This document shows positions 56,641 to 56,750 of a DNA stretch of 64,000 nt, piece after piece. The stretch is from an uncultured Clostridia bacterium (GTDB taxonomy: Bacteria; Bacillota; Clostridia; TANB77; CAG-465): the NCBI GenBank assembly GCA_947626975.1, contig CANQUF010000003.1, forward strand, positions 26,174-90,173, given 5' to 3'. Each line of letters opens with the position of its first letter. Position 1 is the first letter of the stretch. Both the position numbers and the translations under genes were made by a program. The notes below the pieces were generated by a model, which did no database searches, was not told the origin of the DNA, and saw nothing but the letters and a program-made list of their open reading frames with translations.

Positions 56641-56750
56641 TTACAGCTATTCCATGTTATTAGCCACTTTTAGCCAATTCTATCTATATATTTAAACACC
56701 AAGTTATATTATCTTTTTATAAAAATGTCTTAAAATCAATTTTAGAGCAC
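56641..56750 (+). repeat. Island repeat U1 (long form)
   Basis: Roughly 80% identical by eye to U5 (61034..61130). Contains TAGCCA boxes in 10-bp phase and the core TGTCTTAAAATCAATTTTAGAGC. Confidence 0.75.

Follow-up and report, generated by a model that had tools for sequence, protein, structure and literature searches.

The repeat units described here lie in the window, the whole stretch of 64,000 nucleotides that was analysed, within an island between two conserved sets of genes. To the left of the island the plus strand carries polA, a gene for an SLT transglycosylase, yebC and a gene for an SNase nuclease. A strong GC-rich hairpin terminator (56483-56512, GCCTCTATAGAAATATAGAGGC then a T run) follows the SNase gene, just before a palindrome that we call P (TTGCGCAAAA-TATAAA-TTTTGTGCAA, 56581-56606), and the first repeat unit, U1, starts 33 bp further to the right. 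The genes of the island are all on the minus strand and form three cargo modules: a broken APH-type kinase gene (cargo 1, 57495-58705, made up of 57495-58400 and a fragment at 58499-58705), a HIT and a Fic gene (cargo 2, 58907-60724, with HIT at 58907-59419 and Fic at 59663-60724) and a DUF7021/DUF2262 gene (cargo 3, 61429-62574). Divergent from them, the plus strand encodes an XerC-like tyrosine recombinase of 315 amino acids (62796-63743), whose gene is called xer below.

In the 94-kb contig that contains the window, both GC skew and gene strand switch from plus to minus at about 55.8-56.4 kb of the window. Over the first 82 kb of the contig the skew is mostly +0.13 to +0.40, with three short dips, and the plus strand holds nearly all long ORFs; at contig position 82,001 and beyond, the skew is -0.09 to -0.34, and long ORFs are on the minus strand except for the recombinase gene. 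The same flip is found at the homologous site in genomes G015, G005 and G024, as well as at the site in two other families of the order (G030 and G039). The locus is a replication terminus, where the two replication arms meet. The recombinase itself scores best with the XerC model (239 bits), followed by archaeal XerA (216), XerD (216) and XerS (158), and among solved structures it comes nearest to XerD (130 bits) and XerA (126 bits). A single ortholog is present in 38 of 41 related genomes covering 11 genera, with 47-79% identity, and every one of the 41 encodes a paralog at about 30% identity. In the window's genome, an XerD-like paralog (contig C9, 12245-13156) reaches 326.8 bits on the XerD model, the cut-off of which is 329.6, and an FtsK with a gamma domain is encoded elsewhere.

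Repeat units and their conserved half

Repeat finding recovers a 58-nt unit five times in the island, as U1 (56691-56748), U2 (56767-56824), U3 (56932-56989), U4 (58724-58781) and U5 (61069-61126), and a profile of the core retrieves five copies in the window with E-values of 1e-7 to 1e-10. All copies are in direct orientation on the same, plus strand. U1, the long copy under study, extends over 56639-56750 with its core at 56718-56748. U2 (56794-56828) and U3 (56958-56994, 164 bp after U2) are profile matches, the former of a sub-type (...ATTCTCGTGCGTC) that is near-invariant across two families, and U4 (58750-58786) is a degenerate short copy found by both repeat finder and profile. U5 is the second long copy (61032-61131, core 61095-61131), and homology to a strain contig, L045, extends as far as its left end at 61032. 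A 42-nt left extension is common to U1 and U5 only, with 83% identity; the whole long units are about 63% identical. A possible relic, U6 (ATATCTTAAACTCCTTTTAAAGC, 62576-62598, plus strand), overlaps the ribosome-binding site of the DUF2262 gene and resembles U5. It was missed by the core profile in the window search, its resemblance to U5 may be due to chance, and the corresponding stretch is further decayed in L045 by a 2-nt deletion.

We searched the entire genome (1.15 Mb, 24.6% GC) for further copies. Both the core motif as originally drawn and the double TAGCYA box matched at U1 and U5 only, and the whole repeat family proved to be confined to the island of the window, with no copy elsewhere. 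Together with the E-values of the profile, this demonstrates that the repeat is real and beyond chance.

The original prediction described a core shared by all copies, CTTAAAA-N2/4-TTTTA[R]AG, in which the arms pair if one purine of the right arm is left out. The arms of U1 do read CTTAAAATCAATTTTAGAG at 56729-56747, those of U5 read CTTAAAACTGGTTTTAAAG, and U4 retains the outer CTTA...TAGAG pairs. The motif is nevertheless not common to all copies, as U2 reads ...ATTCTCGTG and U3 reads ...TTTTAGCG. To assess conservation we aligned 33 members of the family from about 20 genomes. Columns 5-23, AAAAATG[T/C]CTTAAAATCGA, are near-invariant, columns 24-30 vary, and columns 29 and 31-35 (G.GCGTC) are conserved again, so that the conserved part of the unit is one half-site together with the centre, jointly AAAATGYCTTAAAATCGA, then G.GCGTC at a constant distance. 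CTTAAAA is retained in 30 of the 33 members and its inverted partner TTTTA in 10, and the full motif with its bulged purine is present in just six, three of which are U1, U5 and the strain allele of U5. The extra copies thus speak against conservation of the unpaired purine across the family, and, judging by the alignment, the bulged base is a local quirk and not a conserved feature.

When the arms are read without a gap, ATGYCTTAAAAT is compared with the reverse complement ACGCNCTAAAAT, and they agree in the A and G of the outer part and in the TAAAAT of the inner part, with mismatches in between. The U site then measures 26 bp, from A9 to T34, with symmetric outer (A.G / C.T) and inner positions and asymmetric middle arm positions. 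The bulge is hence one way of drawing an asymmetry that comes from intrinsically unequal arms, and the polarity of the unit follows from one half being near-invariant and the other variable. The centres also differ from copy to copy (ATCAAT, ATCGAT, ATCGAT, TTTGAT and ACTGGT from U1 to U5). Three sub-types can be told apart: a U2-type (...ATTCTCGTGCGTCGT) that hardly differs between two families, a U3-type, and an x-type (...CGAAATATGGACGTCGT), which is the copy adjoining xer in most congeners. Having no inverted repeat at all, the x-type resembles a half-site rather than a crossover site. As far as conservation can tell, comparison of the copies shows the U unit to be a conserved, asymmetric, double-stranded site family.

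The TAGCYA boxes of the long copies have a different history. Those reported for U1 (TTAGCCA at 56660 and 56670) and U5 (TTAGCCA at 61053, TTAGCTA at 61063) are in the sequence, as is a third one in each copy (ACAGCTA at 56644, GTAGCTA at 61036), and they occupy 56644-56650, 56660-56666 and 56670-56676 in U1 and 61036-61042, 61053-61059 and 61063-61069 in U5, all read on the plus strand. The 10-bp step between the last two had been taken for the helical phasing of arm-type or accessory protein-binding sites. In both U1 (TTAGCCACTT-TTAGCCAATT) and U5 (TTAGCCAGTT-TTAGCTAATT), however, the pair consists of two tandem copies of a 10-mer, TTAGCCANTT. The boxes are confined to these two units, which are duplicates of each other and 83% identical over the box segment, and the exact spacing goes back to a short tandem duplication that was carried into both when their common segment was itself duplicated. 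In G037, a genome of another family, the homologous arm has a recognisable first box region (GCTAGTCCTTGTTATTA) and the 10-mer in single copy; the same interval of the arm holds no boxes in G002, G013 and G024; and the double box is absent from the arm between P and xer in all 49 congeners searched, where other matches are unrelated and mostly palindromic TAGCTA. With a lineage-specific 10-mer and a spacing kept neither in the other copies nor in the congeners, the phasing argument is not supported. The boxes would be a tandem 10-mer in a lineage-specific spacer and dispensable for the family. In one strain comparison, L045 against the window, the long unit with its boxes stands out as a discrete block with variable DNA on either side, and it may, boxes included, have a strain-specific role.

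Palindrome P and the layout of the xer locus

Palindrome P follows the consensus TTGCRCAAAA-N6-TTTTGYGMAA, a clean 10-6-10 geometry in which the arms are conserved and the central 6 bp differ by species. Allowing 0-1 mismatch, there is essentially one copy per genome, at the xer locus, with one extra copy elsewhere in each of G005 and G009. No fewer than four of the five families of the order (f2, f3 and f4 among them) have P at the xer locus; in f3 it lies directly before the ribosome-binding site of xer, and within the genus of the window it lies 100-340 bp upstream of the first U. It shares with U an overall length of 26 bp and like outer positions. By hand count, 15 of 22 positions match the arms of the E. 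coli dif site. A search of the whole genome for Bacillus- or E. coli-type dif returned only chance matches at 7 mismatches and overlooked P, in which 9 positions depart from the E. coli site (hand count). For Clostridia, the prediction of dif has relied mainly on likeness to the Bacillus site, an approach that failed in some species (PMC3025954). The extra palindromes of G005 (L049, G005:C26, 5776-5801) and G009 (L050, G009:C100, 2073-2098), both TTTCACAAAATATGTATTTTGTGAAA, are perfectly symmetric and lie away from the terminus locus, that of G005 between a sugar-transferase gene and a RelA/SpoT-type gene.

Along the locus, P is followed by between one and three U boxes, set at distances that recur, and these in turn by the XerC-like gene; in minimal genomes, G005 for example, there are only P and a single U. 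The order P-U1-U2-U3 occurs with spacings of 137, 76 and 164 bp in the window's genome (G000) and of 146, 191 and 165 bp in G037, and the distance of about 164 bp between U2 and U3 recurs in G017, G037, G051, G052 and G054. Such similar spacings in two families indicate that the first three copies are conserved architecture and not recent insertion scars. Using the 38-position core profile, matches were obtained in 46 of the 50 genomes of the genus, with about 1-5 strong copies (25 bits or more) per genome, mostly grouped at this locus. Fourteen congeners have a U site on the same strand as xer, 20-60 bp ahead of its start codon; the xer-proximal copy lies 12-20 nt before the ribosome-binding site. 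Judged by layout, comparison across the order shows a composite P-U-xer locus conserved in at least four of its five families.

We then asked which of the two elements has the properties of a dif site. The U family lies at or near the inflection of GC skew and is conserved among relatives jointly with the Xer recombinase(s) and FtsK. Typical dif sites are non-coding, AT-rich and partly palindromic, about 28-31 bp long with a centre of 6-11 bp; U, at 26 bp, has such symmetry only in part, and its x-type copies lack the inner repeat. A dif site is also expected in single copy, and here U departs from expectation (five copies in the window, about 1-5 strong ones in relatives), whereas P essentially conforms. 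On this count and on its 10-6-10 geometry, P appears to be the better dif candidate.

Some features of the arm deserve mention in their own right. The non-coding U2-U3 block of the window (56770-57010) was compared with its counterpart in G037 (L021, 10155-10395), and the two are 81.8% identical, while identity with congeners is 54-69%; the closer likeness to a genome of another family could reflect either horizontal movement of the arm or an unusual constraint. A LexA-box-like motif, AACAAATGTTCG, follows the last U box of the arm (57094-57107). The same motif lies 50-130 nt after the last U box in G024 (L011, about 8990), G013 and G014 (L015, about 2808; L018, about 9745), and again in an 83-nt stretch after U5 in L045 (about 440-470). 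Its recurrence suggests that the arm may contain an SOS-controlled promoter. In two congeners, G010 (92% complete) and G012 (96%), the xerC-like ortholog is missing along with both P and the U boxes, which reflects either an unassembled locus or the use of another system.

Cargo modules and mobile DNA

In the window's genome, U4 and U5 separate cargo modules: the APH-type gene lies between U3 and U4 and the HIT-Fic pair between U4 and U5, and only the doubtful U6 is found on the xer side of cargo 3. No U copy was found on the xer side of the cargo in G014, G017 and G021. Among related genomes the cargo differs and the flanks, YebC-SNase and xer, are conserved. G024 carries two Fic genes along with the remnant of a HIT gene, G014 a gene for an AAA ATPase and an unknown gene, and G005 and others have no cargo at all between the flanks.

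A finer comparison is possible with L045, a contig of another strain whose Xer protein is identical to that of the window and which carries a membrane-protein gene where G000 has Fic. From xer leftwards it is 95-100% identical to the window up to exactly 61032, the left end of the long unit, and unrelated beyond. An 83-nt indel between the two starts 2-3 nt past the right arm of U5. Homology between the Fic regions of G000 and G024 ends 45-290 bp from the cores. In neither junction comparison (G000 with G024, G000 with L045) did a breakpoint fall inside a U core, and a search for a degenerate P to the left of U5 gave nothing convincing. A contig retrieved by Fic look-up breaks inside U5, and one retrieved with the SNase protein is identical to the window and so adds no information.

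The Fic block at this locus is 89.7% identical in nucleotide sequence between G000 and G024 (window 59660-60835, L011 10400-11585), and the Xer proteins of the two genomes are 72% identical. Since the block is so much closer than the neighbouring recombinase, the Fic module seems to have been recently exchanged, as these identities suggest. In L045 the DUF7021/DUF2262 gene (891-2017) is frameshifted into pieces of 238 and 78 amino acids, and this cargo gene appears to be decaying.

Copies of the site were also seen on mobile DNA. A near-perfect U-like palindrome (9993-10029) separates the tnpV and Mob_Pre genes of a Tn4451-like mobilisable element (L016, G021:C25, 5830-14443); besides TnpV and Mob_Pre, the element encodes a relaxase, a large serine recombinase, a radical SAM protein and Fic. 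Viral contigs gave 48 exact 19-mer matches, of which an estimated 10-20 are expected by chance and about 8-10 extend to a full U site; the small U-carrying viral contigs that we inspected are fragments of tailed phages and not small integrase-less elements. In G017 (L012, G017:C30, 1-1900) and in viral contig L058 (1-500) the P-U2-U3 block has the opposite orientation with respect to xer, and the inserted DNA abuts P, not U3. This arrangement indicates a possible site-specific inversion or a different insertion point.

Readings of the U units

A conserved site beside a conserved Xer-family gene at the terminus supports the more cautious option of the original prediction, that of an asymmetric recombinase core site. 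There are precedents in XerS/difSL of streptococci and lactococci and XerH/difH of Helicobacter and Campylobacter, where the recombinase gene likewise adjoins the terminus site. As in U, the inner arms of difSL and difH are an A-tract and a T-tract (…AAAA-N-TTTT…) and the arms are unequal by one extra nucleotide, in the right arm of difSL and, as a T, in the left arm of difH, with their recombinase binding one half more strongly (PMC5357621). Unlike in those systems, the protein encoded here scores higher as XerC, XerD or XerA than as XerS or XerH, it coexists with an XerD-like paralog and with the gamma domain of FtsK, and there are two types of site, P and U, the second in multiple copies.

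On balance, and with real reservations, we favour the reading in which the U repeats are asymmetric Xer recognition sites of a composite dif/xer locus at the terminus, a locus that would collect gene modules without a recombinase of their own. We infer that the adjacent recombinase binds the U units; it would do so, alone or with XerD, through the invariant arm. A near-invariant arm and centre beside a variable arm, with no folding signal in DNA or RNA, fits a protein-binding site. Chromosome dimers would more likely be resolved at P. The U units would be secondary Xer sites, just upstream of xer, at which recombinase-less modules are integrated or shuffled, and this proposal would account for the position of U4 and U5 between cargo modules, as extra copies left there in the process. 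Most pairs of U would be poor partners for excision because their centres differ and because U1-U3 are only 76 and 164 bp apart, and the array would in this way be kept stable. The U-like sites on the Tn4451-like element and on phage or prophage contigs seem to count in favour of such a role. Several observations count against it. It is P and not U that has the single-copy occurrence and the geometry of dif; the xer-proximal x-type looks like a half-site; the three genomes named above have cargo with no U copy towards xer; and homology with L045 breaks at the left end of the long unit rather than in its core, just as Fic homology ends outside the cores.

The integrative elements that exploit Xer (IMEX), such as TLC-phi, CTX-phi, the gonococcal genetic island and Legionella LME-1 with XerL, are a close parallel to this proposal, being recombinase-less DNA at the terminus between direct dif-like repeats (PMC9765430), as the APH and HIT-Fic modules of the island are too. 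In these elements, a conserved arm likewise faces a degenerate one, insertions are stabilised by the imperfection of their sites, and the duplicated site can reveal an unrecognised dif (PMC9765430). Occupancy that varies between kept flanks is what we observe among related genomes; homology that breaks inside the centre of the site is not. Unlike in IMEX, moreover, the modules of the island are not bounded by copies of P, the best dif candidate, several of them have no site on one side, and U1-U3 are conserved architecture. Acinetobacter pdif modules are likewise modules of resistance- or toxin-type genes bracketed by many Xer-type sites; those sites are plasmid-borne, of the 28-bp XerC/XerD kind and usually of alternating orientation, unlike the direct, chromosomal sites at the terminus described here.

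Alternatively, the U units could be accessory motifs of a composite dif at which no crossover takes place. Strand exchange would occur at P only, and U would help to shape the synapse by holding additional recombinase subunits, in the role that DR1 and DR2 play for TnpI of Tn4430, or would repress xer, or would act like the XerD sites that unload SMC; the cargo would have arrived otherwise, with U4 and U5 as segmental duplicates. This we consider rather unlikely, though with a good deal to be said for it. Just one half of each unit is conserved, no inverted repeat is present in the xer-proximal copy, which sits 12-20 nt before the ribosome-binding site, P-U1-U2-U3 keep similar spacings in two families, and cargo often has no U copy on one side. 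In L045, the arrangement "U box plus AACAAATGTTC" seen after U3 is repeated after U5, suggesting that pieces of the arm have been duplicated. The site of Tn4430 has a comparable layout, with a recombinase gene preceded by an inverted-repeat core and direct accessory motifs that bind the same recombinase, TnpI, and impose directionality (PMC2847244), and the layout of P, U1-U3 and xer, conserved in two families, is compatible with a composite site of this type. Contrary to the 116-bp TnpI site, which belongs to a transposon, the arm takes up 0.3-6 kb of chromosome with spacings of 76-340 bp. Minimal genomes such as G005 make do with P and one U, full U-like palindromes are carried by mobile elements with no P nearby, and U4 and U5 lie exactly between cargo modules, all of which argues against a purely accessory function.

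As for SMC, it is reportedly unloaded at XerD-binding sites at the terminus of Bacillus subtilis. These are said to be several dif-half-like sites near the terminus with one arm conserved and the other degenerate, as in U; they are reportedly spread over hundreds of kilobases, whereas U copies are clustered by xer and interleaved with cargo.

Crossover, accessory binding and cargo capture might also be combined. In such a scheme, which is bolder and to our mind improbable, P and the U boxes would together be a chromosomal dif of several hundred bp in which U-bound Xer subunits set the direction and topology of resolution, as a TnpI-like filter, and the arm would double as a landing pad for recombinase-less modules and phages, order-wide in these uncultured low-GC gut Clostridia. 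No description of the P-U-xer arrangement was found in the literature searched. In an order of small, very AT-rich gut bacteria, a palindrome, asymmetric boxes and a xerC-like gene make up one terminus module in an arrangement of its own. If the U boxes are Xer-binding sites, they would offer a testable case of housekeeping dimer resolution regulated by accessory sites, and would show a dimer-resolution system becoming a collecting point for Fic, HIT, kinase and immunity-like genes in uncultured gut bacteria. For annotation, the box profile marks the terminus in fragmented metagenome assemblies.

Three further readings together keep only a small share of the probability. As polar fork-arrest (Ter-like) sites, the units would form one half of a fork trap at the terminus. 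Several asymmetric sites of about 30 bp, in one orientation and on one side of the skew switch, would suit this role. It is made very improbable by a linked conserved gene that encodes a tyrosine recombinase and not a Tus- or RTP-like protein, by our finding no oppositely oriented set on the other side, and by copies that are interleaved with variable cargo and also present on mobile elements.

As weak bidirectional intrinsic terminators, or some other RNA element after each minus-strand gene and before xer, the units would combine an A-tract, a hairpin and a T-tract. Several copies have ATAAAAA before the palindrome and CGTTTTTTT after it, and G-U pairs would lengthen the stem in RNA. The RNA folds obtained (0 to -6 kcal/mol) do not surpass those of shuffled sequences (z -0.3 to +1.5), a terminator scan gave no match, and an Rfam search of 56000-64000 with E up to 1 returned nothing. 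A strong GC-rich terminator already follows the SNase gene, and conservation of the nucleotides of one arm across families without compensatory change is unlike the evolution of a terminator. We rejected this reading as highly improbable.

The weakest is the analogy drawn by the original prediction with integron attC sites, in which extrahelical bases would give polarity to single-strand folds and the divergent recombinase would insert cassettes at an attI-like site. What the island has in common with an integron is a same-strand array of cargo with a repeat copy after each gene and a divergent tyrosine recombinase gene. Single-stranded DNA folds of long and short copies on both strands were no better than those of shuffles, with cores at -0.1 to -1.7 kcal/mol (z -0.6 to +0.7), and the one partial exception, the minus strand of the long copy of U5 (z -1.9, 9 of 200 shuffles as good), owes its stem to the TAGC boxes. 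The recombinase reaches 99.4 bits on the integron-integrase model TIGR02249, against a cut-off of 265, and 57 bits with the structure of IntI4. The analogy fails because the folds match shuffles and the recombinase is not an integron integrase. Adding to this the bulge in 6 of 33 sites, the lack of a GTTRRRY-type core, and a position at the chromosome terminus with a housekeeping-type xer kept in nearly every genome searched, we discarded attC-like folding on both strands, and the integron reading is hardly credible.
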